From Candidatus Aminicenantes bacterium (GTDB lineage: Bacteria; Acidobacteriota; Aminicenantia; Aminicenantales; Saccharicenantaceae), in the NCBI GenBank assembly GCA_037447475.1, contig JBBIGP010000004.1:7713-71712 (forward strand): a stretch of DNA of 64,000 bases, in the 5' to 3' direction. The translations under genes were made by a program, and so were the position numbers. Shown here one piece after another: positions 11,147 through 46,830 of the stretch; positions within the stretch are counted from its first letter, which is position 1, and every line of letters begins with the position of its first letter. The notes below the pieces were generated by a model. The model was given only the letters and a program-made list of their open reading frames with translations. It was not told where the DNA came from and did no database searches.

Positions 11147-11527
11147 CTAGGACTTGGCTCCCGTCCGGATGCCGCCCTTGAATCGGGCTCCGTCCGCGAC
11201 CGTGATCTTCGGGGCGGCGACATCGCCGTCCATCCGGGCGGTATCGAAGATCTGGACGCGTTCGCCGGCGTCAACGTTGCCCGCGAGCTCCCCGTGAAGG
11301 ACGAGGGTCCGGACCTTGATCTCGCCCTCGGCGCGGGCCCCCTTGGCGACGGTCAATGTCCCGGACGGGAGCGTGATCGTTCCTTTGAGCCGGCCTTCGA
11401 TGAGGACGTCCTCGTGGGCCTCGAGATCCCCTTGGACGACGACGCTCGGCCCCAGGCGCGTGGCGCCGGGACGCCCGGTCCGTTCCGAGGATGAGTTCTG
11501 GGCCTGGCTGGCTTTTTCGTCCGACAT
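11147..11527 (-). CDS. Bactofilin-family polymer-forming protein
   Basis: 126 aa with repeated beta-helix pattern ([19 protein letters not shown]...[26 protein letters not shown]). ATG start. Confidence 0.8.
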
Positions 11528-11604
11528 GGGTGGTCCTCCCGTCTGGCCGGTCTGAACGGTCCACTGCGATTATAGGGGGGCCTCCGGAGCCTGTCAACGC
11601 TGCT

Positions 11605-11632
11605 TTGAAACGCCCGGGAAATGTGCTAGAAT
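11605..11632 (+). promoter_or_regulatory. Candidate promoter of tRNA-Gly (TTGAAA-N16-TGcTAGAAT, extended -10)
   Basis: TTGAAA at 11605-11610, TG at 11624-11625, TAGAAT at 11627-11632, 14 nt before the mature tRNA 5' end. Same -35 hexamer as the tRNA-Leu promoter. Confidence 0.5.
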
Positions 11633-11646
11633 GCGGCTTTCCGTGA

Positions 11647-11721
11647 GCGGGCATAGCTCAATGGTAGAGTACCGGCTTCCCAAGCCGGGTGTTGTGGGTT
11701 CGAGTCCCATTGCCCGCTCCA
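11647..11721 (+). tRNA. tRNA-Gly (anticodon CCC), CCA encoded
   Basis: Cloverleaf folded by hand: acceptor GCGGGCA/TGCCCGC, anticodon stem CCGGC/GCCGG with loop TTCCCAA, T-arm GTGGG-TTCGAGT-CCCAT, discriminator T, CCA. Confidence 0.9.
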
Positions 11722-11728
11722 TTTTTTT

Positions 11729-11819
11729 AGAGGGGGTCAAATCTCCACTTATTAAATTTTGGACGGCGCGTCGACCATGAACGAAAAATTCGATAATAAG
11801 TGGAGATTTGACCCCCTCT
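11729..11819. repeat. AT-rich long-stem hairpin element, copy 1
   Basis: Left arm AGAGGGGGTCAAATCTCCACTTATTAAATTTT. The right arm reverse-complements to AGAGGGGGTCAAATCTCCACTTATTATCGAATTTTT. 26 bp of perfect stem and a ~23-nt GC-rich loop. Near-identical element at 46831-46925. Confidence 0.75.
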
Positions 11820-31867: not shown

Positions 31868-34576
31868 ATGAAAAAGCCGCTCATCGCGCTGGGCATGATA
31901 GCCCTGTTCCTCATGACGGCCGCCGTCTCCGCGCAGGAGCGCGGCTCGGTCCGCGGCGTCGTCAAGGACCAGGACGGGAACGCCATCCAAGGCGCCACCG
32001 CGACGATCGCGGGGGCATTCCTTCCGCGGGGGAGGGAGTTCGTCACCGGCCGTGACGGGATCTTCCTCTTTCAGGCCCTGCCGCCGGGCAATTATACGCT
32101 TCTCATCATCCATCCGCAGATGATGGACTATACGTCCGATGTCATCGTGGCCCTCGACCGGCAGACGGCCGTCAACGTCACGATGTCCGCCGTCGGCCGG
32201 GTCCAGGAGGAGATCACGGTCATGGCCGCCTCGCCCATCGTGGACCTGAAATCGACGTCGATCTCCGCGAGCTGGCACAAGGACCTCGTCGAGAAGCTGC
32301 CCATGGGCCGGTCCTACGCCTCGCTCTTCCAGCTGGCCCCCGGGGTCGCGGACAACCGCGATTTCGCGCCCAATGCCGGGGGGAACAAGCAGGACAACGT
32401 CTATCTCTACGACGGCTCGAACATCACGAATCCCCTTTTCGGGTATCTCGGGGCGAACTTCTCCGAGCTCGACATCCAGGAGGTCAACATCAAGAGGGGA
32501 GGCGTCACCGCCGAGTTCGGGCGGGCCGCGGGAATGGTCACCAACGCCGTCACTAAATCGGGCTCGAACACGGTCTCAGGCTCGATGCGGTTCATCTTCG
32601 AGCCCGCCGCGTTCACGGCCGGCTTCGTCGACCCCAACATCGTCACTAAATACAACCAGTACCAGCCGGCCGTCGGCGTCGGCGGCCCTCTCGTCAAGGA
32701 CAAGCTGTTCTGGTACGTCTCGGGGAACCTCCCTTACTCCCTGACCACGGGCCGGGTCAACAACTTAGGCAGCGTCCCGGATTCCAAGAGGACCTCGAAC
32801 GAGTTCTTCGGCAAGATCACCGCCAACCCCCACAAGGCCCACACGATCACCCTGAGCATCCGCAACAACGACTACAAGAACAGAGACGCGGGGATCGGCG
32901 TCAACGACCATCCGAGCGCCGCCTACGACAGCGAAGGATTGAACCGGATCATCTACGGATCTTGGGTCTGGACGATCTCCCAGAACACGATCCTCGAGAC
33001 CCGCTACAACCACGTCAACGAGGACTATTCCGCTGTTCCCATTACGGATCTCGGCTACCGCCCGGCCTTCGACATCAACAACCTTCCGGCCATGGGCTAT
33101 TTCCGGACGGCGACAGGCTATATCGTCGGCGGGGCCACGGCCAGCGGCCAGTTCGTCGGCGGCTATTCAATGAAAGACACCCAGAACTTTTTCCGGGATG
33201 AGCTCAAGTTCGTCCTGAGCCACTATGCGGATTTCCGCGGGCACTCCCATGTGCTGAAGGCGGGATTCTCTTACGACGACGGCGGGGAGTACCTGGACAG
33301 GATCGCCAACGGTTGGGGCTCCATCACCGTGACCACCTACGGAGGCCAGCCCGTTTTCCGGGCCGCGTATTACTCCGAGCAGGCCCCCCAGGATTCCCGG
33401 GGCCGGACCTATTCCATCTTCATACAGGACACGGCCACGATCGGCGAGCGCTTGACCCTGACCGCGGGCCTGCTCTTCAACCGGGACGAGTTCAGCGCCA
33501 AAACGGCCGCCGAAAAGAACACCTTCCTCAGATTCAGTTTCGAGCAGGAAGTCCAGCCGCGCATCGGGCTCGCGTTCACCCTCGACCCCAAAGCCGGCGA
33601 CAAGATCTACGCCAACTGGGGCCGTTACAACAACATGGACAACCGCAGCCTGTCCCGGGCCGCAGCCCCTATCCGGATCTTTCTGTCCGATGCCTATTTC
33701 CTCCGCTCGGACGGCTCCCTGATCGCCGACCTTCCCCGCACCGCGGAGACCGGCAAGGTCATCCTGCCAGGCCTCAAACCGACCTACACGGATGAGGTCG
33801 TGGGCGGATACAGCCGGCCGCTCGGCCGCGTCTGGAGCATCGATGTCTGGGGCCAGTATCGGACCATGAAGAACGTCATCGAGGATTTCCCGACCCGTAA
33901 CAGGGAAACCTCCCCAAGCCAGTATGTTTACGCAAACCTCAACGGGCAAACCATCTCTTATGGCGGGAACCCTGCGTTCGAAGCCGGCAAGGCCCGCCGC
34001 GTCTACAAAGCCGCCAGCTTCGAGCTCAAGAAGCAGTACGCGGACCGCTGGTCGATGACGTTCATGTACACCTGGAGCCGTCTCGAGGGGAACTGGGACC
34101 TCGACTATGCCGCGTCGGCGTTGTTCTACGCCTCTTCCGCTCTCGAGGATGGCCCCGGCCTGTACGTCAGCGACCCCAACCGCGACGGGCTCCTTATCGG
34201 GCACAGGACCCACGTCCTCAAGTTCTTCGGAAGCTGGGAATTCTACAAGAACTTCACCCTGGGCTGGTTCAGCCGGATCCAGAGCGGCCGTCCTTGGGAA
34301 TCGCGGGGCTTGGATTACGTCAACAGCTACCGCAGATACCTGGAGCCGGCCGGATCGAACACCCTCAAGGACTGGGGCAACCTCGACCTACAGGTGTCCT
34401 ACGCAATCCCCATTGGCCGGACGTTCCACGGCATAATTGAGGCCCGCATCATGAACCTCTTCAACGACCAGACGGCGCTGACCATCGACCAGCGCGCAGA
34501 CCAGCCCACTTTCAAGAACCCGACATCCTATGCGCCGCCGAGGAAGTTCGCACTCTCGTTCCACCTCAACTTCTGA
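31868..34576 (+). CDS. TonB-dependent-receptor-like outer-membrane beta-barrel with N-terminal CarboxypepD_reg domain
   Basis: Signal peptide. GSVRGVVKDQDGNAIQGATATI...PPGNYTLLI (carboxypeptidase-regulatory fold), a plug-like segment, a long barrel, and a C-terminal aromatic residue (LNF). AAAGGAGGG SD. Confidence 0.85.
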   Translation: MKKPLIALGMIALFLMTAAVSAQERGSVRGVVKDQDGNAIQGATATIAGAFLPRGREFVTGRDGIFLFQALPPGNYTLLIIHPQMMDYTSDVIVALDRQTAVNVTMSAVGRVQEEITVMAASPIVDLKSTSISASWHKDLVEKLPMGRSYASLFQLAPGVADNRDFAPNAGGNKQDNVYLYDGSNITNPLFGYLGANFSELDIQEVNIKRGGVTAEFGRAAGMVTNAVTKSGSNTVSGSMRFIFEPAAFTAGFVDPNIVTKYNQYQPAVGVGGPLVKDKLFWYVSGNLPYSLTTGRVNNLGSVPDSKRTSNEFFGKITANPHKAHTITLSIRNNDYKNRDAGIGVNDHPSAAYDSEGLNRIIYGSWVWTISQNTILETRYNHVNEDYSAVPITDLGYRPAFDINNLPAMGYFRTATGYIVGGATASGQFVGGYSMKDTQNFFRDELKFVLSHYADFRGHSHVLKAGFSYDDGGEYLDRIANGWGSITVTTYGGQPVFRAAYYSEQAPQDSRGRTYSIFIQDTATIGERLTLTAGLLFNRDEFSAKTAAEKNTFLRFSFEQEVQPRIGLAFTLDPKAGDKIYANWGRYNNMDNRSLSRAAAPIRIFLSDAYFLRSDGSLIADLPRTAETGKVILPGLKPTYTDEVVGGYSRPLGRVWSIDVWGQYRTMKNVIEDFPTRNRETSPSQYVYANLNGQTISYGGNPAFEAGKARRVYKAASFELKKQYADRWSMTFMYTWSRLEGNWDLDYAASALFYASSALEDGPGLYVSDPNRDGLLIGHRTHVLKFFGSWEFYKNFTLGWFSRIQSGRPWESRGLDYVNSYRRYLEPAGSNTLKDWGNLDLQVSYAIPIGRTFHGIIEARIMNLFNDQTALTIDQRADQPTFKNPTSYAPPRKFALSFHLNF

Positions 34577-35281: not shown

Positions 35282-37849
35282 ATGCCTGACGACGGCCGGC
35301 TGAACAGGTTCCTGAACCGTTTCGGCTTCGCCGATGTCCGCGTCCCCGAAACGCGGGCCGTGTCCTATCTCTTCGCCCTCTTCTTCCTGACGACATTCTC
35401 GTTCTACATCATCAAGCCGGTCAAGGAGACCTTCCTCATCGGGGTGACTCCCGCCTGGTGGCCGTACGCGGACCTGGCCACGGCCCTGCTCATCGGCTTC
35501 GTCGTGGCCCTCAACGCCAGGCTCCTCAACCGCCTTCCGCGGCGGGCCTACTTGACGGGGACCGTCCTGTTCTTCGCCGCCTGCTTGTTCGTCTTCTGGT
35601 ACGTTTTCGACGCCGCCCTGCAGCTCCAGATCCGGACGCCCGTGATCCACTCCTCGGCCATTTTCGGCGTCATTCCCTTCCAGGTCGCCGTCCGCAACAT
35701 CTGGCCCCTTCCGGTGTTCGCCTTCAGCTTCTTTTCCGATGTCTTCATCGCCATGTCCGTCACCCAGTTCTGGATCGCGGTCAACGATACCCTCGATCCC
35801 TACCAGGCGAAGAGGACGGTCGGCCTGTTCGTCTCGGGGGGGCTGTTGGGCGGGATCGCCGGCGCCCTCCTGACGTCCCTCCTCGTCCGCGTCGTCGGCC
35901 CCGAGAACCTTCTCCTCGCCTGCCCCGGCATCCTCCTCGTCGTCCTGGCCGCCGTCCGCCTCGTCTACGGCGAGCAGAAAAAGCACAGGGGGGAGGCCGA
36001 GCCCTCGGCATCCCCGCCCAAGGCCCGGGTCGGCTACCTGGAGAGCTTCGGCGCCGTCCGGAGGAACAGGTATCTCCTGCTCCTGGCCGGGCTCCTGGCC
36101 TCGGCCATGGTCGCCGGGTCGCTCATCAACTATCAGTTCAAGATCGTCGTCAAGAGCGTCTTCGCGAGCAGCGTCGACCGGACCTCGTTCCTGGGCTCGT
36201 TCTTCTTCGCCATTCTCGTCCTCTCGACCCTTTTCCATCTGGCCGCCACGCGCCTCGTCCTGAAGAATTTCGGCATCCGGCTGGCCCTCCTCGTGGCCCC
36301 CGTGGTCCTGCTCCTCGGCTCGCTCTCGGTCTTCCTCCTCCCGGCCGGCGCCCTGATGGCCTGGGCCAGTCTCGTCAGGGGCGGCGACAAGATCTTCGAC
36401 AACACGATCGGCCAGTCGGTCCGGGAGCTGCTCTACATCCCCGTCCCGGACGAGATCAAGTACAAGGCCAAGATCTTCATCGACATGTTCGTCAACAAGT
36501 TCGCCGTCGGGCTCGGGGCCGGGCTGTTCCTCCTGCTCTACCACGCGTCGCGCTTCGCCTACAAGGCCGAACCGGCGCAGGTCCGGGAGGTCGGCGTCCT
36601 GGCCGTCGCCTTCATCGCCCTCTGGATGGTTCTCACGGGCGTCGTCTACGGGGAGTACCCGAGCGTCGTGAAGAAGGACCTGGCCCGCAAGTGGAAGGAC
36701 GCCGACAAGGTCGTCGAGGAGAGCGTGGACGTCGATGTGACCCGCCGCGTCTTCGACACCGTCCAGAGCCGGGAGCGGAGCGCGACCCTGTACGTCATGA
36801 ACGTCTTCGACCTCATGCGCCGCGGCCGCCTCAGCCCCGAGCTCAAGGAGCTCTTGGGATCCCAGAGGGACGAGCTCAGGGCCCGGTCCATGGACTGCTT
36901 GTTCGACGTCGGGGGAGAGGTCTTCTTCCAGGGGTTCGAGGAGGCCATCGCCGACGAGGACTTCGGGAAAGAGGTCGAGAAGGTCATCCAGTCGGACGAT
37001 TACAAGGCCCTCATGGAGGGACGCCTCGAGACGGTCGCCGGGTCCGCGTCGGAGATCGAGCGCATGGAAGCGGCCAGGCTCATCGGGATGATGGACCCGA
37101 CGCCCCGGGCCATGAGGGTCCTGAGCGTCCTTCTCCAGGACCCCTCGTCCGAGGTCGCAACGTACGCCCTCGACAGCGCGGCGATCCACCGGAGGAAAGA
37201 GCACATCCCCCTGGCTCTCTCCCAGCTGAGCAATCCCTTGACCTGCCAGGGCGCCCAGGCCGCCTTGGCCGCCTACGGCCCGGCCGCCGAGGAGGCCCTG
37301 AGAGCGGCCCTCCAGGACGAAGACCTGCCCCCCGGCGTCCGCCGGGCCATCCCCGATGTCCTGGGCCGGATCGGGACCCAGCGGGGGGCCGACATCCTTC
37401 TCGCCGAGCTCGGGAGGTGCGGCGAGGACATGGAGCCGGAGATTGTCGGAGCCCTTTACAGGATCCGCTCCGCCCGGCCGGGCGTTCTGTTCAAGGAGAA
37501 GAAGGTCCGTCCCGAGATCCTCCGCCTGGTCAGGAAAGCGGGGGAGATCTTCCTCGAGAGGGTCCTGGACGGACAGGACCCCGGCGCCACGGCGGCCCTC
37601 GACCTTCATGTCAAGCGGATTTTCGACCTGCTGACGCTCGTCCAACCGGCCGAGGACGTCGTCAAGGCCTACCAGAACATCCTTCAAGGGACGAAGCGGT
37701 CTGTCGATTATTCCCTCGAGCTTCTCGACAACCTGCTCGATCGGGAGCTCAAGAGGGCCCTCTTCCCGCTCCTCGAGGACCTCCCGCCCGAGGACAGGAG
37801 CGTCCGGCTGAGAAAGGCCCTTCGGGGCCTCGGCCGGGGCCGGGGTTGA
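35282..37849 (+). CDS. TLC/NTT-family (ATP/ADP translocase-like) transporter fused to C-terminal HEAT-repeat domain
   Basis: N-terminal ~440-aa polytopic domain with TLC signatures (FSFYIIKPVKETFLI; DNTIGQSVRELLYIPVPDEIKYKAKIFIDMF). The cytoplasmic tail has HEAT/PBS-lyase-like repeats (LQDPSSEVATYALDSAA; DEDLPPGVRRAIPDVLGRIG). Confidence 0.85.
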   Translation: MPDDGRLNRFLNRFGFADVRVPETRAVSYLFALFFLTTFSFYIIKPVKETFLIGVTPAWWPYADLATALLIGFVVALNARLLNRLPRRAYLTGTVLFFAACLFVFWYVFDAALQLQIRTPVIHSSAIFGVIPFQVAVRNIWPLPVFAFSFFSDVFIAMSVTQFWIAVNDTLDPYQAKRTVGLFVSGGLLGGIAGALLTSLLVRVVGPENLLLACPGILLVVLAAVRLVYGEQKKHRGEAEPSASPPKARVGYLESFGAVRRNRYLLLLAGLLASAMVAGSLINYQFKIVVKSVFASSVDRTSFLGSFFFAILVLSTLFHLAATRLVLKNFGIRLALLVAPVVLLLGSLSVFLLPAGALMAWASLVRGGDKIFDNTIGQSVRELLYIPVPDEIKYKAKIFIDMFVNKFAVGLGAGLFLLLYHASRFAYKAEPAQVREVGVLAVAFIALWMVLTGVVYGEYPSVVKKDLARKWKDADKVVEESVDVDVTRRVFDTVQSRERSATLYVMNVFDLMRRGRLSPELKELLGSQRDELRARSMDCLFDVGGEVFFQGFEEAIADEDFGKEVEKVIQSDDYKALMEGRLETVAGSASEIERMEAARLIGMMDPTPRAMRVLSVLLQDPSSEVATYALDSAAIHRRKEHIPLALSQLSNPLTCQGAQAALAAYGPAAEEALRAALQDEDLPPGVRRAIPDVLGRIGTQRGADILLAELGRCGEDMEPEIVGALYRIRSARPGVLFKEKKVRPEILRLVRKAGEIFLERVLDGQDPGATAALDLHVKRIFDLLTLVQPAEDVVKAYQNILQGTKRSVDYSLELLDNLLDRELKRALFPLLEDLPPEDRSVRLRKALRGLGRGRG

Positions 37850-37850: not shown

Positions 37851-40034
37851 ATGGCCGGACGCGTCGTCTACAATGAGGGCGCAGGGGATGACATGCCCGA
37901 CTTCTACGTCTATCCCAAGACGGGCGATCCGTTCACCGTGCCGCTGAAGCCCGGCAAGATCACCATCGGCCGGGCGCCGACGAACGACCTCGTCCTTTCC
38001 GACCAGTTCAGCTCGGGATGTCACGCCTCCGTCTATCCGACGACAAGCGGATTCGTCCTTCTCGATCACGGCAGCAAGAACGGCACGTTCGTCAACGGCA
38101 AGAAGGTCACGGGGGAGATCCTCCTGGCCCGGGGGGACGAGATCCTCATCGGCTCGACGAGGATCTACTTCGACCGGGAGTTCCAGAGCAGCATCGAGAT
38201 GGTCGAGGGGACGACCTTCACCCACAGCTCGAACACCATCATCCAGGTCAAGGACATCCTGAAGAAGGCCCCCACGGCCGGCGACTACAGGACGCCCGGA
38301 GGGGAGCTCGACCTGGGGAAGCTCCAGCAGGAGCAGAAGATGATCGCGGTCATGGGGGAGGTCAGTCAGGCCCTCATCTACCACATGCCCCTCGACAAGC
38401 TGCTCAACCACATCATGGACGTTCTCATCCAATACCTGCCCATGGACCGGGGCGTCCTGATGCTCAAGGACCCGGCGACGGGCGAGCTCGCCCACAAGGT
38501 CGTCCGCGTCCAGAGCGGGTCCCTGAGGACGCAGAACATCGCCATCAGCAAGACCATCGTCCAGACCGCCGTCGAGAAGAACTCGGCCATCCTGCTGTCC
38601 GACATCCGGTCGGACGAGAGGTTCGGCGGCCAGGCCAGCGTCATCCAGGCCCAGATCCATTCGGCCATGTGCATCCCCCTCTGGAACAACCAGAACATTC
38701 TCGGGCTCATCTACGCCGACCGGGCCTCCCTCGTCGAGCAGTTCACGGAAGACGATCTGAAGCTGCTGACCCTGCTCGCCAACCTGGCCGCGGTCAAGAT
38801 CGAGAACGCCCGGCTCTACGAGAATTCCCTCAAAATGGAGCAGATGGAGCGCGAGATGGCGATGGCCGTCCAGATCCAGAAGAACTTCCTGCCCCGGGGG
38901 AACCCGTGGTTCGAACCCTACGACGTCAGCGGCAGCATGCGGGCCTGCCACCACGTCGGCGGGGACTACTACGATTTTCTGCCCGAGGCCGACGACCGGC
39001 TGGGCATCGTCATCGCCGACGTCTCGGGGACGGGGGTCAGCGCGGCCCTCCTCATGGCCAACCTGAGGGGGGCCCTGACCGAGAAGTTCCCGGTCACGCC
39101 GGACCTGGGCGAGCTGGTCGCCAAGCTCAACGACTTCGTCCATTCGAGCTCGGACAGCCATTGCTTCATTTCTTTTTTCCTGGCCGTCCTGGACCGCGCC
39201 CGGGACAGGCTGACCTACGTCAATGCCGGCCACAACCCCCCCCTGCTCGCGGACGATCGCGGCCGGATCAGCCGGCTCGAGAGCACGGGTCTCTGTCTCG
39301 GCATGTTCCCGGCCCGGGCCTACGAGCAGCGGACGATCGACCTCGGGCCGGGGGACGTGCTGTGCCTCTACACGGACGGGATCGTCGAGGGCCGGAACAA
39401 GGGCGGGGAGGAATTCGGGGAGGAGAGGCTCGCGGGGATCCTCCGGTCCGCCGCGGCCATGCCGGCCCGGGGGATCATGGAAAGGATCTACGAGGAGGTC
39501 CTCGCCTTCACGGACTGCTCCGCGGCCGGCGACGACATGACCCTCGTCGTCGTCCGGAAGAACCCGCGGCGGGAGGACGGCGAACGGTCTTCGACGGAAA
39601 GGGACGTGCGGGAGATCCGGGTCCCCGCCGCTCTCGAAGCCGTCGACCGCGTCAGGGAGTTCCTCCGGGCCTACATGGGCGAGCAACGGGTCCCCGACGA
39701 GGAGGCCCTGGCCGTCGAGCTCTCGCTCCACGAGATCTGCGTCAACATCGCGATGTACGCCTACTCCGGGGGTCCGGCGGGAGAGATGGCCGTCCGGATC
39801 TGGAACGATGACGGCATGCTGTTCCTCGAGATCCGCGACCGGGGCGTCCCCTTCGACCCCGCGGGAAAGCCGGACCCCGACCTTCTCGTCAAGGTCCGCC
39901 GCGGGCAGCGGGGCGGATTAGGCGTCTTTTTCTTCAAGACCCTCATGGACGGCTTCACTTACCGCCGGGAGAACGGGGAGAACGTCCTGACCGTCCGCAA
40001 GCGGATCCCGCCCCGGCCCGCTCCGGTTCAGTAG
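37851..40034 (+). CDS. Multidomain signalling protein: FHA - GAF - PP2C/SpoIIE phosphatase - RsbW-like HATPase
   Basis: FHA (ITIGRAPTNDLVLSD...GSKNGTFVNG). GAF (DRGVLMLKD...LGLIYADR). SpoIIE (VGGDYYDF, ADVSGTGVSAAL, NAGHNPP, LYTDGI). HATPase_c_2 (LHEICVNIAMYAY, IRDRGVPFD, GGLGVFF). ATG 37893 is an alternative start. Confidence 0.9.
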   Translation: MAGRVVYNEGAGDDMPDFYVYPKTGDPFTVPLKPGKITIGRAPTNDLVLSDQFSSGCHASVYPTTSGFVLLDHGSKNGTFVNGKKVTGEILLARGDEILIGSTRIYFDREFQSSIEMVEGTTFTHSSNTIIQVKDILKKAPTAGDYRTPGGELDLGKLQQEQKMIAVMGEVSQALIYHMPLDKLLNHIMDVLIQYLPMDRGVLMLKDPATGELAHKVVRVQSGSLRTQNIAISKTIVQTAVEKNSAILLSDIRSDERFGGQASVIQAQIHSAMCIPLWNNQNILGLIYADRASLVEQFTEDDLKLLTLLANLAAVKIENARLYENSLKMEQMEREMAMAVQIQKNFLPRGNPWFEPYDVSGSMRACHHVGGDYYDFLPEADDRLGIVIADVSGTGVSAALLMANLRGALTEKFPVTPDLGELVAKLNDFVHSSSDSHCFISFFLAVLDRARDRLTYVNAGHNPPLLADDRGRISRLESTGLCLGMFPARAYEQRTIDLGPGDVLCLYTDGIVEGRNKGGEEFGEERLAGILRSAAAMPARGIMERIYEEVLAFTDCSAAGDDMTLVVVRKNPRREDGERSSTERDVREIRVPAALEAVDRVREFLRAYMGEQRVPDEEALAVELSLHEICVNIAMYAYSGGPAGEMAVRIWNDDGMLFLEIRDRGVPFDPAGKPDPDLLVKVRRGQRGGLGVFFFKTLMDGFTYRRENGENVLTVRKRIPPRPAPVQ

Positions 40035-40921
40035 AGGACCTTCTCTTCTCCGTTCATCCTGACGAGCCTGTCGATCTCCTTGAGGACGAGGTCCCTGCGG
40101 ACGAGCACGGCCTTGATCTCCTCGTCCGTGAGGTACTCGCCCACGACGCCCTTGACGGCCTCGGCATCGAGCGTCTTGATCTTGTCGACGATGGCCCGGG
40201 GCAGCTCGCTCATGAGCTTGGGGCCTTCCTTGTGCTTTTCCGTGTAGATCAGGCTCTTCGTGAACTTCCCCGAGGCCCGGAAGGACCGGGAGTGGTCGAT
40301 GAGGATCATCCGCCAGTCGGGCTGGGTGATGAGGATCTGGTTCTGGTGGCGGTCCTCGTTGGCGATGAGATTGTCCCAGAACCGCTGCAGGTAGGTCGCC
40401 CGGTTCCAATAATAGACCCTGATGGGCGGGACCTTGAGGTTCTTCTGCTCCTTGTCGCGGAGCGTGATGCAGTCCTCGACCCAGAGCTGGCAGGACCCGC
40501 GCTCCGCGCGGTAACGTCGCTCGACGGTCGGGGGGACCATGTTGAGCCCGAGGTGCTTGTCGAGGAGATAGGCGGCGACCTCGTAGTTCCAACCCTCCCA
40601 ATACCCGCCCATCCGGCCTTGGGCGTTCTTCCACAGGGCCCGGTGGGACACGTCGTCCTTTTTCAGGGTCAGGACCCAGGGGCTGGTCACGGATTCCCTT
40701 CCTGTCATCTGCCGGCTGTCGACGACCTCGGCCGTCCTCAGGAACTCCTCCCACTTCTCCCGCTCGGCCAGGTCTTCGGGCGTGAACTGGGCGGCGCCGA
40801 GTCGCGGGGCCGGCCCTCCGGGGCCGTTGGCCGGGCTCATGGCGTGGCCCAGGAGGACCACGGACAAGACGCCGGCGGCGATGGCGCCGGACACGATGGA
40901 TACGATCGCGGACTTTTTCAT
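40028..40921 (-). CDS. Exported PI3/PI4-kinase-like (type II PI4K-like) protein, paralogue 1
   Basis: Signal/anchor MKKSAIVSIVSGAIAAGVLSVVLLGHA. Motifs RALWK, EVAAYLLDKHLGLNMVPPT, GSCQLWVED, NLIANEDRHQNQILI, WRMILIDHSRSF. Strong GGGAGGG SD. Confidence 0.7.
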   Translation of the reverse strand: MKKSAIVSIVSGAIAAGVLSVVLLGHAMSPANGPGGPAPRLGAAQFTPEDLAEREKWEEFLRTAEVVDSRQMTGRESVTSPWVLTLKKDDVSHRALWKNAQGRMGGYWEGWNYEVAAYLLDKHLGLNMVPPTVERRYRAERGSCQLWVEDCITLRDKEQKNLKVPPIRVYYWNRATYLQRFWDNLIANEDRHQNQILITQPDWRMILIDHSRSFRASGKFTKSLIYTEKHKEGPKLMSELPRAIVDKIKTLDAEAVKGVVGEYLTDEEIKAVLVRRDLVLKEIDRLVRMNGEEKVLY

Positions 40922-40970
40922 TCTTCCCTCCCTGATCTATCCGGTCGATGGCCCAGCCATCTCCTCTCCC

Positions 40971-41807
40971 TCAGTAGAGGACGGCGGCTTCGCCCTGTTC
41001 CCGGACCATCTGGCGGATCTCCTTGAGCAGGAGGTCGCGGCGGGCCAGTACGGCCCGGATCTCCTCGTCCGTGAGGTACTCTCCCACAGCGGCCCGGATG
41101 GTCTCGAACGATAACTCCCGGATCCGGTCCACGAACGAGCGTGGCAGGCGCCGGAAGAGGAACGGCGTCCCCTGCATGGACGTCTGCAGGCCCCGCTGTC
41201 CGAACATCAGCCTTTTCGTGTGCTCCTTCGTCGCGCGGAACGACCGCGAGTGGTCGATGAGGATCATCCGCCAGTCCTCGGTGTAGAGGATGTTCTGCTG
41301 GTTCCGGTCCTCGTTGGCGATGAGACTGTCCCAGGCGCGGGTCAGCCACTTCATCTTTTCCGTGTGTTCCGTCACGGAGTCGGGAATGCGGATGTTGTTG
41401 TCGACGATCTTTTCCAGGCTGTGCTTGTTCTCGGCCCAGAGGACGAGGGCGCCGCTCTGTCCCTGGAACTCCCGCTCGACGGCCGGTGGGATCATGTTCA
41501 AGCCGATGAGCTTGTCGAGGCGGTAGGCGGCGATCTCGAATCGCCAGCCCTCGTAGAAGCCCAGCTGCATGCCGCTCGGGTTCTTCCAGCAGGCCGCCGC
41601 CTCGCGGTCTCCCTGTTTGAGAGTGAGCTTGAAGGGCTTGGTCACCCCTTCGCCGATCTCCTTGAAGCCGGCGATCTCGGCCGTCCTCAGGAACTCCTCG
41701 AACGCTTCTCTCGCGGCGATCTCGTCCGGGGTGAATTGCCCGAACAGGGCGGCCGGAGCCGCTATGAGCAGGAGAAGGCAAACGGCGGCCCGAAACGCAC
41801 ATATCAT
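40971..41807 (-). CDS. Exported PI3/PI4-kinase-like (type II PI4K-like) protein, paralogue 2
   Basis: Start re-picked at ATG 41807 (GGAGGA SD 7 nt upstream): MICAFRAAVCLLLLIAAPAALFG. Motifs AACWK, EIAAYRLDKLIGLNMIPPA, ALVLWAEN, SLIANEDRNQQNILY, WRMILIDHSRSF. Confidence 0.7.
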   Translation of the reverse strand: MICAFRAAVCLLLLIAAPAALFGQFTPDEIAAREAFEEFLRTAEIAGFKEIGEGVTKPFKLTLKQGDREAAACWKNPSGMQLGFYEGWRFEIAAYRLDKLIGLNMIPPAVEREFQGQSGALVLWAENKHSLEKIVDNNIRIPDSVTEHTEKMKWLTRAWDSLIANEDRNQQNILYTEDWRMILIDHSRSFRATKEHTKRLMFGQRGLQTSMQGTPFLFRRLPRSFVDRIRELSFETIRAAVGEYLTDEEIRAVLARRDLLLKEIRQMVREQGEAAVLY

Positions 41808-41915
41808 CGAATCTTCCTCCGATGGCACCCTGATGCTCCTATCATAAGGAGGGTCAAGGGGGAAATCAAGCCCAGCCCGAGCCCCGTTTCCGCTTCGTGT
41901 GGCCGTCGAGGGGGA

Positions 41916-43406
41916 TCAGGCTTTGGCAAGGGCATCCTGGGCGGTCTTCCGCCTTCGGTAGGCGGGAATGATCTTGAGACAGATGCCGATCAGGACGGCC
42001 ACGGCGAAGACGTTGAGGAGAGCGTAGTTTTCGATGTGAAGTCCGAGAAGGTGGACGCCGATGAGGACGGCCAGCGCTGAAAGCGTGTCTCCCCCCCTGA
42101 CAAAGAAGGTGTCGATAGCCGCCTTGGCTTTATACTTCTCCTCCCGCTTGGTGACCAGGAACAGCGCGGCCTTGGTCGTATTCTGAAGGGAATAGTCGGT
42201 GCCGTTCTCGAAGGCCTTGACCCAGCGGACGAGCACGAGAACGGCTCCGAAGGAAATCAGCGTGTAGCCGCCCAGGGCGATGAGAGGAAGGAAGAGCAAG
42301 GCCCCTCCCACGCCGATCCACTTGAAGATGCGCGAGACCAGGAAGAGCTGGATGATGAGGGCGATCAGATTGGTCAGGAACTGGTAGTTCATGAATGCGC
42401 TGTGAATGGCCTTGCTCTCCGTTCCGGCGGGCAAGGCCGGGGACGCCGCCGGGCGCTTCCGATCGGCTCCATCGTCGGGAAGCGGGACGAGCCGGCCCCG
42501 CGGGCCTCCCGCGGCTCCATCGGCTATCGACTCCCTGACCGTGACGGCGGTGATGATATATTCCCCGGTCGCATTGATGAAATTATAGAGGCCGATCATG
42601 GCCGCGATGAGAAGAAGGTAGCGGCTCTTGAAGATCAGCCGGAACCCTCCTCCCGCTCTTAGCGGCTGTTCACTGGCGACGCTTTCCTCCTCGGCCTTGG
42701 CCAGGCCCTTTTCGCGGGCCTCGCGGGTGTCCCGGACGGCCCGGTTGTGGATATGCCAGGCCAAGGCGATGCAGAGCAGCAGGATGAGGCCCGCGATGAG
42801 CATGAGCTCGTATTCCCAGTTCTCCCCCAGGATATCCCTCAACCGCTTCATGATCGGCAAGGTCGCGACGAGCCATCCGAGCGTGGCTCCCAGGGCGACG
42901 AGCGGAAACGTGCGCTTTCCGACCTCGTCCGAATAGAGGTCGTTCGCGAAGCCCCAGAACTGGGCGATCACGAAATAATTGAATATGCCGATCCAGATGA
43001 AGAACATGATCCCCATGGGCTTGACGGCCATCCCGCTCAAGTTGAGGAAATAGAAGACGACGAGGTTGGAGATGAAGAATGATGTTGTCCAAGTGATAAG
43101 GATATGCCGAGGCACCCTGGAAGCGAGGCGACTGAATGCCTTGATGACGAAGATGAAGAGAACGGCTTGGGCCCCGCTCAGGTAGCTCTTGACTTGAGGG
43201 GAACCCTGGTCAACAAGGAGAAGCGACTCGCGCAGCGGCTTGAGGATGTAGTAGGCCAGAAGCAAAAGAAAGATGTTGAGGGCGAGCAGGAGGGCCTTCA
43301 GGGCTTCCCCCTTGCGGACGTCGGCGAACAGCCTGAGGAAGCCGTAGCCGATGTTCGAAGTAGCGCCGCCCGACGGCGGGATCCCCCCGCGGATTCTATC
43401 CCCCAT
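41916..43406 (-). CDS. TLC/NTT-family (ATP/ADP translocase-like) nucleotide transporter
   Basis: 496 aa, polytopic. LLLAYYILKPLRESLLL; IAQFWGFANDLYSDEVGKRTFPLVALGATLG; DYSLQNTTKAALFLVTKREEKYKAKAAIDTF. These match remembered Rickettsia Tlc motifs (FWQFANQI..EAKRFY; KYSLFDATKNMAYIPLD..KGQAAVE). Confidence 0.85.
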   Translation of the reverse strand: MGDRIRGGIPPSGGATSNIGYGFLRLFADVRKGEALKALLLALNIFLLLLAYYILKPLRESLLLVDQGSPQVKSYLSGAQAVLFIFVIKAFSRLASRVPRHILITWTTSFFISNLVVFYFLNLSGMAVKPMGIMFFIWIGIFNYFVIAQFWGFANDLYSDEVGKRTFPLVALGATLGWLVATLPIMKRLRDILGENWEYELMLIAGLILLLCIALAWHIHNRAVRDTREAREKGLAKAEEESVASEQPLRAGGGFRLIFKSRYLLLIAAMIGLYNFINATGEYIITAVTVRESIADGAAGGPRGRLVPLPDDGADRKRPAASPALPAGTESKAIHSAFMNYQFLTNLIALIIQLFLVSRIFKWIGVGGALLFLPLIALGGYTLISFGAVLVLVRWVKAFENGTDYSLQNTTKAALFLVTKREEKYKAKAAIDTFFVRGGDTLSALAVLIGVHLLGLHIENYALLNVFAVAVLIGICLKIIPAYRRRKTAQDALAKA

Positions 43407-43427
43407 GTCGACCTCCCTCCGGGACGC

Positions 43428-45311
43428 TCAGATCAGGACATGGCCCTCCCCGCGGGTCTCGATGAGCCTTTTGATGATCCGGATGATGAGGTCACGGCGG
43501 GAATGGAGGGCTTCGATCTCTTCTTTGTCGAGATGGGGCGACAGAAGGAGGAAGACCGCCTTCCTGTCCCACCCCAGGAGCTTGCCGAAGAGGTCTTTCG
43601 AGCACTTGCGGATCTCGCATCCGGGCGGAAGGCTCTTCCGGGGCGCGAAGGCTTCCGAGAAATCGACGCGGTAGATCCGCTGGTCGTCGCGGCTGACGAG
43701 CACGTCCCGGTCGTTGTCGCACTCTTCGTGGACGAGCATCTCGAAGAGCCGCAGGTCTTCCCGGTCCCGCTCGAAGGCCGCGGGCCGGGCCGGGGCGAGC
43801 TTCTGCTCCTTCCAGTCGAATTCCGAGATGGCGTTCTCGACGAAGACCTGCAGGGAGCCGGGGATCCCGTCGATCTCCCGCTCGATGACAGGCGGGACGA
43901 ACGCCAGCTTGAGGTACTTGGCGAGGTCGTAAGCGGCCAGCTCGTAGCGGTAGCTGTCGGGGAGCGGGTGAGGGCGGCGCCGGTCGATGTACTTGAACAT
44001 GGCCCTGCGCGTGACGCCGTCCTTCTCGAGGGTCACCCGCCAAGGCTCCGTCCGCCCGGCGGCGGCCGTCTTGCGGGCCATGGCCTTGGCCGTCCTGAGG
44101 AACTCCTCGACGGCTTTGGCCGAAGCGAGCGGTTCCGGGCGGGTGACGACCGGAGAGCTGCGGGCGGCGGCCTCTTCCGTCTCGCCCCAGAGCTCGAACC
44201 GTCCGTCCTCGTAGATGAGGGCCGCGGGCAGGCCGCCGTAAAACTCGGAGATCCCGGTGTCGATGACGAAGACCTTGCCGCCGAAGCGGCTGACGGTCTC
44301 GAGGGTCGCGATGGGGCTCGACCCGGCGTTGTTGACAGGCAGATAGCTGTGGCCGACGACGATGGCCCGGGCCCCGAGGTTGTCCAGGATACGGTCGACC
44401 TCGGCCTGAGCGGTGCCTTCGATATGGGTCGTCAGGCCCCGGAACCAGACCGGGCCGTCCGGCGCGTAGACGAGCTTGGGCTTGAAGGGCCTAAAATAGC
44501 GATGAGGGGACTTGATCCTCTCCCGGAACTCCTCGAGCTCCTTTCTCATGAGGTCGTTCGTCTCGCGCAACGGCCGTTTCGAGTAGTGCTCGTTGACGCC
44601 CCCGTGGAGGTAGACGACGTCGTTGATCTTGATGATGGTGTTCTTCGTCAGCAGCCAGCTTCCGTACAGGTCGTTGAAGGCGTTGACATAGGCCAGGCGG
44701 GCCTCCCGGTCGTGGCGGATGACACGCTGCCAGTAGGCCCGCAGAGCTTCGTCCGTCCCGAGATCCAGGCCCTCGGCCTCGGCCTGGCGGCGCCGGTCGC
44801 GGGGGAGCCTGGCGATGTAGGCCGCTTCCAGGGACCTGCGGACGCCGTCCGGGAGGAAGGAGACGAACTGCTCGGGCGTGACGTACTGAGGATAGTCCAG
44901 GGCGATGCCGGTGATGTTCATCTCCTCGTGGTTGCCGATGAGGACGTGGACCAAGCCGCCGGCCGCCTCGGCTTCCTTTTCGAGGCGCATGAGAAGGTCC
45001 ATGATCTTCCTGGCGTCGGGGCCGCGGTCCATGATGTCGCCGAGCTGGACGAGGTGGGCCGTCCCGGCGGTCCATCGGAGGTCCGCGTCGATGACGCCGA
45101 CCTCGGGGTTCGAGAGGATGAAGACGAACCGGTCGTAGTCGCCGTGCAGGTCGCCGACGGCGACGACGCGGCCGACGCCGGACCAGGCATAGGGGATCTC
45201 GGAGGCGGGAGAGAGCGGGACATGGAGCAGGATGAGCAGGAGAAGAATAAACAGACCTTTGAGGGGCCGACATGGGGCCTGTCGCGACCATCCCCTGCTG
45301 CGTTCGGGCAT
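43428..45311 (-). CDS. Exported PPP/calcineurin-type metallophosphoesterase fused to a degenerate PI4K-like domain
   Basis: Signal-like N-terminus (LKGLFILLLLILLHVPLSPA). GDLHGD, GDIMDRG, GNHE, LHGG and VGHS motifs in residues ~50-325. Residues ~395-627 are homologous to the two downstream kinase-like proteins but carry DNDRDVLV / YRVDFSEAF. Confidence 0.8.
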   Translation of the reverse strand: MPERSRGWSRQAPCRPLKGLFILLLLILLHVPLSPASEIPYAWSGVGRVVAVGDLHGDYDRFVFILSNPEVGVIDADLRWTAGTAHLVQLGDIMDRGPDARKIMDLLMRLEKEAEAAGGLVHVLIGNHEEMNITGIALDYPQYVTPEQFVSFLPDGVRRSLEAAYIARLPRDRRRQAEAEGLDLGTDEALRAYWQRVIRHDREARLAYVNAFNDLYGSWLLTKNTIIKINDVVYLHGGVNEHYSKRPLRETNDLMRKELEEFRERIKSPHRYFRPFKPKLVYAPDGPVWFRGLTTHIEGTAQAEVDRILDNLGARAIVVGHSYLPVNNAGSSPIATLETVSRFGGKVFVIDTGISEFYGGLPAALIYEDGRFELWGETEEAAARSSPVVTRPEPLASAKAVEEFLRTAKAMARKTAAAGRTEPWRVTLEKDGVTRRAMFKYIDRRRPHPLPDSYRYELAAYDLAKYLKLAFVPPVIEREIDGIPGSLQVFVENAISEFDWKEQKLAPARPAAFERDREDLRLFEMLVHEECDNDRDVLVSRDDQRIYRVDFSEAFAPRKSLPPGCEIRKCSKDLFGKLLGWDRKAVFLLLSPHLDKEEIEALHSRRDLIIRIIKRLIETRGEGHVLI

Positions 45312-45430
45312 CTGTATCCCTTATACACGTTTTTGTGGTGGGAATCAACGGCTTGGCCGTCCACGATGCGTGTCATCGATAGACACCACGGGACCGGTCG
45401 TTTCCCATCAGGGGAGTGGAGCCGAAAGAA

Positions 45431-45460
45431 TTGACTCCGCCGCCGGGCCCCTGATATCCT
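45431..45460 (+). promoter_or_regulatory. Candidate promoter (TTGACT-N18-TGaTATCCT) for the DUF1343 gene
   Basis: TTGACT at 45431-45436 and TATCCT at 45455-45460 with an upstream TG. Motif match only. Confidence 0.3.
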
Positions 45461-45477
45461 GAGGCGCGCGGGCAAGG

Positions 45478-46830
45478 GTGACGAAAGGACGGTGGACCGT
45501 GCGTTTCGGATCGTTCGTTGGTGTCATAGGGCTTGTGGGAATGTTTGTCGTTCTTGCCGGGGTTTCCGGCTGCAGGGGAGGCGGGCGGCCGGTCCCCTCC
45601 GAGGATGTCGCTGTGACGGTCAAGCCGGGCGTCGAGGTCTTCCTCGAGAGATATGTCGGGCTCGTGGAGGGCAAGCGCGTCGGCCTGATCACCAACCCGA
45701 CGGGAGTGGATGGGCGCCTGCGGTCGACGGTGGACCTGTTCGCCGGGAGCCCCGATATCGACCTGGTCGCGCTCTATGGCCCCGAACACGGCGTCAGGGG
45801 GAACGCGCAAGCCGGCGAATACGTGCCGTTCTACATCGACGACAAGTACGGTTTGCCCGTTTTCAGCCTCTACGGACAGTCGTTCAAGCCCCCGCCGGGC
45901 ATGCTCAAGGACATCGACGAGCACATGCGGTCGTTCGACACGGACATCGCCGGGAAGGTCCCCGAGAAAGCCATGGTCGAGAGCGTCGACGTCCTCGTCT
46001 TCGACGTCCAGGACGTGGGGACGAGGGTCTACACCTATATCGCCACCATGGCTTACGCGATGCAGGCGGCGGCCGAGAGCGGCATCGAGGTCATCGTCCT
46101 GGACCGCCCGAACCCCGTCAACGGCGTGGACATGGAGGGGCCGATCCTGGAGTATCCCGCATTCAGCTCGTTCGTCGGGCTCTATCCCGTCCCTGAGCGC
46201 TTCGGCATGACGATGGGCGAGCTGGCCCTGCTCTTCAACGACAGGTTCCTGGAGAAGAAGGCCCGTCTGACGGTCGTCGCCATGGAGGGCTGGAAGAGGC
46301 CGATGTGGTTCGACGATACGGGACTGCCCTGGATCATCCCTTCGCCCAACATGCCGACCCTCGACACGGCCACGGTCTATCCGGGCCAGGTCTATATCGA
46401 GGGGACGAACATGTCGGAAGGCCGGGGTACGACCCGGCCGTTCGAGCTGTTCGGAGCGCCTTGGATCGACGGCCACGAGCTGGCGAAAAGGCTCAACGGG
46501 CTCGGCTTGCCGGGCGTCGTCTTCCGGGAGACCTGGTTCACGCCGTGGTTCTCCAAGTTCCAAGGGCAGCTCTGCGGAGGCTGCCAGGTCCATGTCACGG
46601 ACAGGGAGGCATACCGGTCGTTCGGGACCGCGCTGCACGTCATCAAGACGGTCCGGGACATGTATCCGGACAAGTTCGCCTTCCATGCGGACTACTTCGA
46701 CAAGGTCATGGGGACGGACAAGGTCCGCCGGGCTCTCGAAGCGGGGGAGACCGTCCCAGCGATCCTCGAGAGACTGGAGCCCGGGCTGGCCGCCTTCGCC
46801 GCGCTCCGCCGCCCGTATCTGCTCTATTAG
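45478..46830 (+). CDS. DUF1343 family lipoprotein (NamZ-like exo-beta-N-acetylmuramidase family)
   Basis: Lipobox LAGVSGC. GLITNPTGVD, ALYGPEHG, VLVFDVQDVGTRVYTYI, IVLDRPNP and PSPNMPT are typical DUF1343 motifs. GTG start (45478, or 45499). Confidence 0.85.
   Translation: MTKGRWTVRFGSFVGVIGLVGMFVVLAGVSGCRGGGRPVPSEDVAVTVKPGVEVFLERYVGLVEGKRVGLITNPTGVDGRLRSTVDLFAGSPDIDLVALYGPEHGVRGNAQAGEYVPFYIDDKYGLPVFSLYGQSFKPPPGMLKDIDEHMRSFDTDIAGKVPEKAMVESVDVLVFDVQDVGTRVYTYIATMAYAMQAAAESGIEVIVLDRPNPVNGVDMEGPILEYPAFSSFVGLYPVPERFGMTMGELALLFNDRFLEKKARLTVVAMEGWKRPMWFDDTGLPWIIPSPNMPTLDTATVYPGQVYIEGTNMSEGRGTTRPFELFGAPWIDGHELAKRLNGLGLPGVVFRETWFTPWFSKFQGQLCGGCQVHVTDREAYRSFGTALHVIKTVRDMYPDKFAFHADYFDKVMGTDKVRRALEAGETVPAILERLEPGLAAFAALRRPYLLY

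Follow-up and report, generated by a model that had tools for sequence, protein, structure and literature searches.

The window, meaning the whole stretch of 64,000 nucleotides that was analysed, carries on its minus strand a conserved operon for a phosphatase fused to a kinase-like domain, a transporter-like protein, and two stand-alone kinase-like paralogues; all features described here are on that strand. The fusion gene (43428-45311) is an open reading frame for 627 amino acids, with a signal peptide, a Shewanella-like PPP phosphoesterase, a linker, and a kinase-fold domain, here called K3, that is predicted to be a pseudokinase. Between the fusion gene and K1 stands the gene for a TLC-family (ATP/ADP-translocase-like) membrane protein of 496 amino acids (41916-43406). 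The putatively exported paralogue K1 (40971-41828) has the motifs WKN, EIAAY, NEDRNQQN, and IDHSRSF, while K2 (40028-40921), also putatively exported, has WKN, YEVAAY, NEDRHQNQ, and IDHSRSF; the two have 49% identity to each other. An Rfam search over 39900-45700, covering the operon and its upstream region, gave no credible RNA element, the two matches listed being far below their gathering scores.

Export signal, phosphatase, and transporter

The signal peptide of the fusion (residues 1-37, 45201-45311) has a basic n-region, an L-rich core, and the sequence SPAS. The fusion has 120 full-length orthologues with 54-87% identity, and a hydrophobic N-terminus with basic residues was present in 116/116 fusion orthologues by a heuristic call, not by a dedicated predictor. 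From such signal-like N-termini the phosphatase-K3 fusion, K1, and K2 are all predicted to be exported to the periplasm or envelope, and a covarying cysteine pair in K3 further backs the prediction. The AF2 model of the fusion has a pLDDT of 84 and a pTM of 0.58, with the mutual orientation of the two domains being of low confidence. The inter-domain linker (residues 378-394, 44130-44180) has a pLDDT <50 at residues 385-392, and a comparison of split and fused genes places it where split K3 genes have their own signal peptide.

The phosphatase domain (44181-45182) belongs to the PPP family of metallophosphoesterases and is of the Shelph type. The motif set described for the Shelph group is GDxHG, GDxxDRG, GNH(E/D), H(A/G)G, and the bacterial (I/L/V)D(S/T)G (PMC535813); the domain has GDLHGD, GDIMDRG, GNHE, HGG, IDTG, and GHS, all intact, and is most similar to Shewanella PPI. 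Its closest solved relative is the cold-active protein-tyrosine phosphatase of Shewanella (PDB 1v73, 1.3e-35; also 2z72), with which it shares every PPP motif as well as (I/L/V)D(S/T)G, although the solved chains (331-342 residues) align solely with the N-terminal phosphatase domain of the fusion. With every PPP motif in place, the phosphatase is predicted to be catalytically competent.

The transporter passes the Pfam TLC model (PF03219; 2e-16, 60.3 bits, cutoff 21) but is far under the cutoff of the ATP:ADP antiporter equivalog (TIGR00769; 48.8 bits, cutoff 387). The position of its gene is conserved in Aminicenantes, and at 6 of 8 places in other phyla a TLC gene likewise lies next to a fused relative. 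Characterised members of the TLC family (Tlc/Npt/NTT) are nucleotide transporters, and the linkage across phyla would suit the scavenging of nucleotides or organophosphates: the exported phosphoesterase and kinase-fold proteins would process extracellular nucleotides, the TLC protein would import them, and K3 would be a nucleotide-binding receptor. Scavenging is nevertheless highly improbable, given the resemblance of the phosphatase to a protein-tyrosine phosphatase, the low antiporter score of the transporter, and the complete phosphotransfer loop kept by K1, K2, and the fused relatives, which a binding protein would not need.

The K3 domain and its active site

K3 corresponds to 43431-44129, as originally delimited, or residues 395-627. 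The original prediction was that this C-terminal domain aligns along its whole length with both stand-alone kinase-like proteins, and all the peptide strings quoted for it are present in the 43428-45311 open reading frame. In BLASTP comparisons the C-terminal ~235 residues of the fusion match K2 (2e-30, 33% identity) and K1 (2e-21) end to end, and the homology is far above chance. The model of K3 has a bilobal kinase fold, with Fam20C, Fam20B, and PI4KII (type II PI 4-kinase) as the best Foldseek matches, and the K1/K2 profile matches the motifs EIAAFHLDR..VPP and DFLIGNxDRHH...LDNxxxF of FAM20A and Fam20B. Common to the bacterial domains and Fam20C, Fam20B, or type II PI 4-kinase are EIAA[F/Y]xLD...VPP, NxDRH, and [I/L]D[N/H], as well as action outside the cytosol, which for the bacterial proteins is predicted. 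Unlike these kinases, K1, K2, and K3 are minimal domains of ~230 residues that do not reach the thresholds of the corresponding Pfam models. Fam20C (PF06702) is below threshold on all proteins of the window; PI3_PI4_kinase (PF00454, cutoff 27.1) has no match on K3 and gives 16-17 bits for K1 and K2 (0.011 for K1), and is passed by distant fused relatives only (P0391, 49.7 and 28.5 bits; P0488, 29.3 bits). The SCO1664 family (TIGR03843), which is PI3/PI4-kinase-like and found in Actinobacteria, matches K1 (3e-9) and K2 (9e-12) over nearly their full length but weakly, and K3 partially; at 21-45 bits against a cutoff of 172, these are distant relatives and not members. At E<=1e-3 the kinase-like family that includes K1, K2, and K3 comprises 5117 cluster representatives; Pfam lacks a model for it, and a search of the open-access literature on bacterial Fam20-like kinases, periplasmic kinases, and periplasmic ATP supply found nothing on it. 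Among representatives of the K3-type clusters, the single name assigned was Candidatus Saccharicenans (Aminicenantes).

The catalytic loop of K3 (EECDNDRDVL, residues 529-538, 43698-43727) was initially read by matching the DR of CDNDRD with that of DRH, so that the His and Asn of DRHxxN appeared lost. The degeneracy is real, but the match between the two DR pairs is coincidental: it needs a two-residue gap, whereas MAFFT and hmmalign both align NEDRHQNQIL with EECDNDRDVL without gaps, and orthologues read C[R/Q/H]N[E/D][K/R]D, for example CRNEKD. It is the catalytic Asp itself that is replaced, by Cys531 (43719-43721); Asn533 takes the position of the His and Asp536 (43704-43706) that of the Asn at +5. 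In hydra Fam20B the DRH motif supplies the catalytic base through its Asp and a contact to the substrate through its His (PMC5865150). DRHxxN is no consensus of the family: K1 proteins have DR[T/N]QQN, K2 proteins have DRHxNQ with Gln for Asn at +5, and distant fused relatives have DRNxGN. The K1 and K2 copies are apparently catalytically intact by these motifs, and the Asp of DRH, equivalent to that of HRD, is present in both as well as in the fused relatives. Among the 120 close orthologues of the fusion, Cys531 and Asp536 are present in 120/120 and Asn533 in 109/120, and Asp536 is at 100% across the K3 clade. An Asp at position 531 was found in none of these orthologues, in none of 80 species-level K3 sequences, and in none of 28 further cluster representatives. 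The proposal of a pseudokinase domain thus agrees with a kinase-fold paralogue that is devoid of the catalytic base, with no exception among the 80 species-level K3 sequences or the 120 close orthologues.

The change from IDH to VDF (residues 549-551, 43659-43667, in the conserved context RVDFSEAFAP) is likewise as proposed in that the His is lost to Phe, but the metal-binding Asp of this DFG-equivalent loop is kept: Asp550 is present in 120/120 and Phe551 in 117/120 close orthologues, and Asp550 is invariant across K3. The family-wide switch is from IDHxR to VDFxE, so that the conserved His and Arg are both gone. Overall, K3 keeps ~31 of 50 positions conserved across the family, and the conserved switches fall in the two catalytic motifs. 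Retained features are G and T of the Gly-loop (GGRT), a putative salt bridge between beta3 and alphaC, the Asp that binds metal, and, at +5, an acidic residue. The ion-pair positions Lys440 (beta3) and Glu457 (alphaC), spanning 43941-43994, line up with FKP...EIAAF in Fam20. In 80 K3 sequences the pairs are KE, KD, or RD and never RE, K/R covarying with E/D; in the wider family position 440 is K, R, H, or Q, and the rule of an invariant beta3 Lys-alphaC Glu pair may not fit this family. The loop between beta3 and alphaC has a K3-specific RRR motif at residues 444-446. A more basic pseudo-site that acts as a phosphate reader found no support, the conserved switches adding acidity (N to D and R to E).

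Cys531 covaries with Cys565 (43617-43619) of the activation-segment region: among 80 K3 sequences, position 565 is not Cys in ~14 of the 16 in which position 531 is not Cys, which suggests a Cys531-Cys565 disulfide. Cys570 (43602-43604) is present in 75 of the 80. The loop C-x-[N/D]-x-x-D together with VDFSEAF is the signature of a monophyletic K3 subfamily conserved across Aminicenantes, and K3 is under purifying selection, with a dN/dS of 0.17 compared with 0.15 for K1 and 0.19 for K2. Neutral decay or an accident of one lineage is ruled out by the conservation and the dN/dS. The pseudo-site would be remodelled and not decayed, since Asp536 and Asp550 are invariant, the pairs 531-565 and 440-457 covary, and the dN/dS is low.

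Some proteins called pseudokinases use displaced residues or other chemistry, so the replacement of Asp by Cys531 predicts inactivity with that reservation. Among pseudokinases there are published precedents for catalytic residues that have moved and for other chemistries (PMC5413348, PMC10211241), and K3 could still be an enzyme that uses Asn533, Asp536, Asp550, and the GGRT loop for non-canonical phosphotransfer or another ATP-dependent reaction. The invariance of Asp536 and Asp550, the conserved Gly-loop and K/R-E/D pair, and a purifying selection as strong as that on K1 and K2 would all be expected of an enzyme. However, the covariation of the Cys at the base position with a second Cys points to a structural disulfide, and in some lineages among the 80 sequences position 531 has Arg, Pro, or Gln or is gapped, so it holds no constant catalytic residue. 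The beta3 position also accepts Arg, and neither the His nor the Arg of IDHxR is kept. Residual enzymatic activity of this kind is considered quite unlikely, and canonical phosphotransfer by K3 very unlikely; K3 plausibly still binds a ligand, be it a nucleotide, a metal, or a substrate. As judged from its residues, K3 is a pseudokinase by definition: it has a kinase fold, lacks a canonical catalytic residue, and is conserved.

Fused, split, and intact relatives

In 80 species of Aminicenantes, the phosphatase and K3 are encoded by one open reading frame in 40 loci and by two adjacent, overlapping open reading frames in ~38 loci, the split K3 having its own signal peptide. K3 is always directly 3' of the phosphatase gene. 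It had been asked whether both the fusion and the degenerate loop are conserved in orthologues: the loop is conserved throughout the K3 clade, but about half of the class lacks the fusion. The fusion and the overlapping adjacent genes support a physical or functional tie of K3 to the phosphoesterase, and from the gene overlap a stable phosphatase-K3 complex may be supposed for the split lineages. K1 and/or K2 are present in 61/61 Aminicenantes loci with enough flank, usually with the transporter gene between them and K3.

In Myxococcota, Deltaproteobacteria, and Acidobacteriota, the fused relatives show DR[N/H]xxN in 115/116 and IDH in 111/116 sequences, while the beta3 Lys is Arg in ~100 of the 116 and His or Gln in others. 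These beta3 residues, like the Gln at +5 in K2, weaken the case for active kinases in the family. Orthologues with an intact loop, which the original prediction held would point to a lineage-specific accident, are missing from the K3 clade; an intact loop occurs in the fused relatives of other phyla. No K1 or K2 was found within 5-8 kb of the fused-intact relatives. By distance and neighbour joining K3 is closer to the fused-intact group than to K1 or K2, the neighbour-joining placement of a fast-evolving clade being weak. Because the same architecture elsewhere keeps an intact DR[N/H]xxN, the catalytic degeneracy is read from these sequences as a derived state of Aminicenantes, coinciding with the stand-alone K1 and K2. 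A role of the attached domain would thus predate K1 and K2, since relatives with an intact loop are fused and have no stand-alone paralogue nearby.

The occurrence of K3 together with K1 and/or K2 in every such locus, its lineage-specific conserved Cys pair, and its Fam20-type fold recall Fam20A (PDB 5wrr, 5yh2), which shares this atypical kinase fold. Fam20A, a secreted pseudokinase, forms a heterodimer with its paralogue Fam20C and thereby activates it; it also binds ATP, and its disulfides follow a pattern of their own (PMC5413348, PMC4421793, PMC5865150). The ATP binding of the Fam20A type is inverted and independent of cations. Like Fam20A, K3 appears to be an exported, non-catalytic paralogue beside apparently active ones, and it could heterodimerise with K1 and/or K2 as their scaffold or allosteric activator, the phosphatase being carried along in the complex. 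Identity between the two is only ~20%, and the bacterial K3 has neither the N-terminal segment nor the insertions of Fam20. The pattern of loss is also reversed: Fam20A lacks the alphaC Glu (Gln258) and keeps DRHH, while K3 keeps Glu/Asp at alphaC and lacks the catalytic Asp. In addition, the partner of Fam20A is a kinase, whereas K3 is joined to a phosphatase by fusion or translational coupling and usually separated from K1 and K2 by the transporter gene, and fused-intact relatives exist with no stand-alone paralogue nearby. An allosteric role in place of a phosphatase partnership is thus rather unlikely; by analogy, it would be as well precedented as the latter, and both may hold.

A proposed phosphatase partner and a possible extracytoplasmic cycle

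The explanation preferred here, with a probability of about 60%, is that K3 is a true pseudokinase and the non-catalytic partner of the exported phosphatase. K3 would be the phosphatase-attached member of an exported bacterial family with a Fam20/PI4KII-like kinase fold, and would serve the Shewanella-like PPP phosphatase as a binding or regulatory module. It would act in cis in this lineage and, in sister lineages, as a separately exported and translationally coupled subunit. K3 may also, as originally proposed, retain recognition of a substrate and direct the phosphatase to what K1 and K2 would phosphorylate, which goes beyond what the sequences show. The attached domain may have lost catalysis in Aminicenantes, where K1 and K2 share the operon, by subfunctionalisation.

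Bifunctional kinase/phosphatase proteins are known, for example PFK-2/FBPase-2 and AceK. They have opposing activities in one polypeptide, which is the apparent state of the fused-intact relatives; however, their folds are unrelated and they are cytoplasmic, and in the fusion described here the kinase half appears to be disabled. The operon of phosphatase-K3, TLC-like transporter, K1, and K2 is most plausibly an extracytoplasmic phosphorylation/dephosphorylation module, and its content hints at a phosphorylation cycle outside the cytoplasm. A more tentative proposal, rather unlikely at present, is a self-contained cycle analogous to that of the Golgi/ER lumen: the TLC exchanger would provide periplasmic ATP, K1 and K2 would phosphorylate a substrate that is secreted or lies in the envelope, the Shelph phosphatase would reverse the modification, and K3 would be the non-catalytic sensor or targeting subunit of that phosphatase.

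Pseudokinases are well known in eukaryotes; to our knowledge, few conserved ones with a clear evolutionary history have been described in bacteria. The present case is a natural experiment, in which the attached kinase-fold domain is intact in several phyla and disabled exactly where stand-alone paralogues appear, and K3 is open to study both in its fused form and as a subunit of its own. The family is large and unnamed, with export signals, a Fam20-like fold, and a genetic tie to an ATP/ADP-translocase-like transporter. If K1 and K2 are active, it is directly relevant to the existence and mechanism of ATP-dependent phosphorylation beyond the bacterial cytoplasm and gives concrete genes with which to ask. 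If the proposed cycle is true, the linkage of phosphoesterase, kinase-like, and TLC genes across phyla would represent a widespread and undescribed use of ATP outside the bacterial cytoplasm.

Gene order and fold of the kinase-like proteins

The operon comprises four consecutive minus-strand genes in the ORF listing, from 45311 down to 40028. The fusion protein (43428-45311, -; 627 aa), with Pfam Metallophos at residues 48-322 and the kinase-fold domain K3 at its C-terminus, is followed by a membrane protein (41916-43406, -; 496 aa; Pfam TLC 2e-16) and by two stand-alone kinase-like proteins, K1 (40971-41828, -; 285 aa) and K2 (40028-40921, -; 297 aa). An FHA-GAF-SpoIIE(PP2C)-HATPase_c_2 multidomain signalling protein (37851-40034, +; 727 aa) is convergent with K2, the final 7 nt of its gene overlapping the end of the K2 ORF (40028-40034). 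The gene for a NamZ-type exo-beta-N-acetylmuramidase (45478-46830, +) is divergent and adjoins the operon promoter region, and a TonB-dependent-receptor-like outer-membrane protein is encoded farther downstream of the cluster (31868-34576, +); both are envelope-related neighbours.

The original prediction that the C-terminal domain of the fusion (43431-44129, residues 395-627) is homologous to K1 and K2 was borne out: residues ~392-626 align with K2 over the whole length (BLASTP 2e-30, 33% identity), the match to K1 is 2e-21, and all of the peptide strings quoted are present in the translated sequences. K1 and K2 are 49% identical. Pfam and NCBIfam matches were sub-threshold (PI3_PI4_kinase ~0.01, also HipA_2 and FAM198; TIGR03843, the SCO1664 family, 1e-9 to 1e-12 but well under its cutoff); identity as a kinase fold is settled by structure prediction. 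In the fusion model (pLDDT 84), the 10-residue blocks covering most of K3 (residues 451-627) are at ~90 or higher; residues 414-421 are below 50. The structural ranking of this domain (Fam20C 14.1, Fam20B 13.9, PI4KIIalpha 13.4) is the same as that of the K2 model (pLDDT 81.5), for which CtkA, actin-fragmin kinase, HipA and CotH come after the top-ranked folds, and Foldseek matched the fusion model to 5yh0 at 3e-6. A profile of K1 and K2 searched against all PDB sequences picked out FAM20A (E 0.007) and Fam20B (E 0.015), matching the motifs EIAAFHLDRxLxFxRVPPTV and DFLIGNxDRHHYE...LDNxxxFG. Work on hydra Fam20B identifies the DRH Asp as catalytic base and places the next His in contact with the acceptor sugar (PMC5865150).

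Remodelling of the K3 catalytic centre

The catalytic loop reads N-E-D-R-H-Q-N-Q-I-L in K2 and E-E-C-D-N-D-R-D-V-L in K3 (K3 consensus D-D-C-R-N-E-K-D-T-L), and the metal-binding loops read I-D-H-S-R-S-F and V-D-F-S-E-A-F. The loops align without gaps, so Cys531 replaces the catalytic Asp itself. This contradicts the earlier pairing of the two "DR" dipeptides, a coincidence peculiar to the window sequence. The reported loss of the His and Asn holds, with Asn533 at the His position and Asp536 at the +5 position, but the catalytic Asp is lost too; likewise, the change from IDH to VDF is present, but the metal-binding Asp (D550) survives. Among 120 close orthologues (54-87% identity), C531, D536, D550 and C565 are conserved in all 120, F551 in 117, C570 in 114 and N533 in 109.

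In a species-level set of 80 K3 sequences from genome contigs, none has Asp at position 531, and D536 and D550 are invariant save for alignment gaps in two. Cys531 and Cys565 co-occur or are jointly absent: of the 16 sequences with Arg, Pro, Gln or a gap at 531, ~14 also lack Cys at 565. A disulfide bridging the catalytic loop and the activation segment would be expected to leave such covariation, which fits an exported protein. At the beta3/alphaC positions the combinations K-E, K-D and R-D occur but R-E does not, which suggests that the salt bridge is kept and that Lys is not obligatory. Compared with 142 family members having an intact loop, K3 has the identical residue at ~31 of ~50 conserved positions, and its own conserved switches include D->C, N(+5)->D and IDHxR->VDFxE, each lying in one or other of the two catalytic motifs; this too speaks for remodelling and against decay. 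Against the closest genome (L001), dN/dS is 0.17 for K3, 0.15 for K1, 0.19 for K2, 0.16 for the transporter and 0.22 for the phosphatase domain.

With its catalytic Asp gone, K3 is well supported, at the level of sequence, as a pseudokinase by the usual definition (PMC13519141, PMC4718504), and one under full purifying selection. Residual or alternative catalysis is a less likely reading. A lineage-specific accident would leave orthologues with an intact DRHxxN, and none was found among the 120 orthologues or the 80 species-level sequences.

The wider family and the transporter link

When 1.84 billion cluster representatives were searched with a profile, 5117 family members were retrieved at E<=1e-3 and 819 at the stricter E<=1e-30. 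Among those 610-720 aa long, many combine an N-terminal homologue of the window phosphoesterase with a C-terminal kinase-like domain whose loop is intact; their N-termini are signal-peptide or lipoprotein-like, and some score above the Pfam cutoffs of PI3_PI4_kinase and Fam20C. One of these fused-intact relatives, P0300 from Myxococcota, retrieves 3951 relatives from Myxococcota, Deltaproteobacteria, Terriglobia and Thermoanaerobaculia; among the best 116 of the 3951, DR[N/H/T]xxN is found in 115, IDH in 111, and Arg as the "beta3 Lys" in ~100. A metagenomic protein, P0391 (1038 aa), carries in a single chain one phosphoesterase and, after it, a pair of kinase-like domains, and passes the Pfam cutoffs of both PI3_PI4_kinase and Fam20C.

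Family-wide, the beta3-Lys-equivalent position is Lys, Arg, His or Gln and covaries with alphaC (K/R-E, H-Q, Q-N); such variation is unusual for active kinases and would bear on the chemistry of the whole family. K2 orthologues have DRHxNQ, in which +4 is Asn and +5 is Gln. In K1 and in the fused relatives +5 is still Asn, so the two putatively "active" paralogues are not equivalent. Given this Gln and the tolerance of Arg, His or Gln at beta3, K1 and K2 are best called putative kinases only.

Of 61 informative Aminicenantes loci, 38 show exactly the gene order phosphoesterase(+K3), TLC, K1, K2, and in ~49 a TLC gene lies within the cluster. In other phyla, a TLC-family (ATP/ADP-translocase-like) gene is directly adjacent to fused-intact relatives on the same strand at six of eight places examined (L083, L084, L086, L088, L089 and L090) and absent at two. 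A Glu_cyclase_2 (glutaminyl-cyclase-like) gene follows the TLC gene in two fused-intact loci (L084, 11260-12045; L090, 8408-9190) and is nearby in a third (L081, 15327-16289). The recurrence of the TLC link in several phyla is an argument that the transporter-like protein and the exported kinase-fold proteins are functionally coupled. The window protein is above the Pfam TLC threshold and far below the ATP:ADP antiporter equivalog cutoff. That the TLC protein would supply ATP to exported putative kinases is an attractive reading, by analogy with lumenal Fam20 kinases, which need imported ATP; nucleotide scavenging is a less likely alternative. The window TLC gene has a low-complexity Gly/Pro/Ala/Arg-rich insertion (42400-42560, -) containing AAGGPRGRLVPLPDDGADRKRPAASPALPAG. 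A second TLC/MFS-like transporter with C-terminal HEAT repeats (35282-37849, +; 855 aa) is encoded on the opposite strand ~2 kb past K2, and at many loci in Aminicenantes the cluster is likewise flanked by extra TLC paralogues.

No description of the kinase-like family, the phosphoesterase plus kinase-like architecture, or the TLC link was found in the open-access literature. The secreted pseudokinase paralogue is already known as a concept; what appears to be new is the bacterial family, the attachment to a Shewanella-like (Shelph) phosphatase, the linkage to a transporter and the fact that the loop is intact in some phyla and degenerate in another.

Coupling of K3 to the phosphatase

The phosphatase has the motifs GDLHGD, GDIMDRG, GNHE, HGG and IDTG, which are the PPP signature plus a bacterial-type motif (PMC535813). 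Motif residues (for example D54, H56, D92, D95, N127, H128, H236, H321 and D351) are invariant or nearly so in 68 orthologues, and the enzyme is predicted to be catalytically competent. Across 80 loci, all from Aminicenantes or Acidobacteriota MAGs, phosphoesterase and K3 form one ORF in 40 and two ORFs in ~38, the latter in more distant lineages (38-48% identity) that include Candidatus Saccharicenans. In the split loci (within L030-L080; for example L046, 9977-11843, and L071 from Candidatus Saccharicenans, 9917-11777) the two ORFs meet end to end or share a few bases, and K3 opens with its own signal peptide. Thus of the two features whose conservation was in question, the fusion is lineage-specific and confined to half of the loci, but the degenerate loop is found in fused and split forms alike; the loop change therefore either came before the genes took their fused or split form or is unrelated to that form. 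That K3 and the phosphatase are fused in one lineage and tightly coupled in the other is an argument for their joint action, and attachment of K3 to a phosphatase with which it works is supported on this basis.

K1 and/or K2 are present in all 61 Aminicenantes loci with enough flank, and no stand-alone gene of this type was found within 5-8 kb of fused-intact relatives. In a neighbor-joining tree K3 is a monophyletic clade; its mean distance from the fused-intact group (1.45-1.51) is somewhat smaller than that from K1/K2 (1.66-1.81). The K1-K2 distance is 0.88, and these two are recent duplicates of each other. In the simplest history, the ancestor would have been an exported phosphoesterase plus kinase-like protein, whose attached domain would have lost catalysis in Aminicenantes, where stand-alone paralogues are present, and been retained for a non-catalytic role. 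K3 may be a Fam20A-like activator of K1 and K2 (PMC4421793, PMC5413348). As originally proposed, it is also plausible that K3 keeps substrate recognition and would bring the phosphatase to the K1/K2 substrate.
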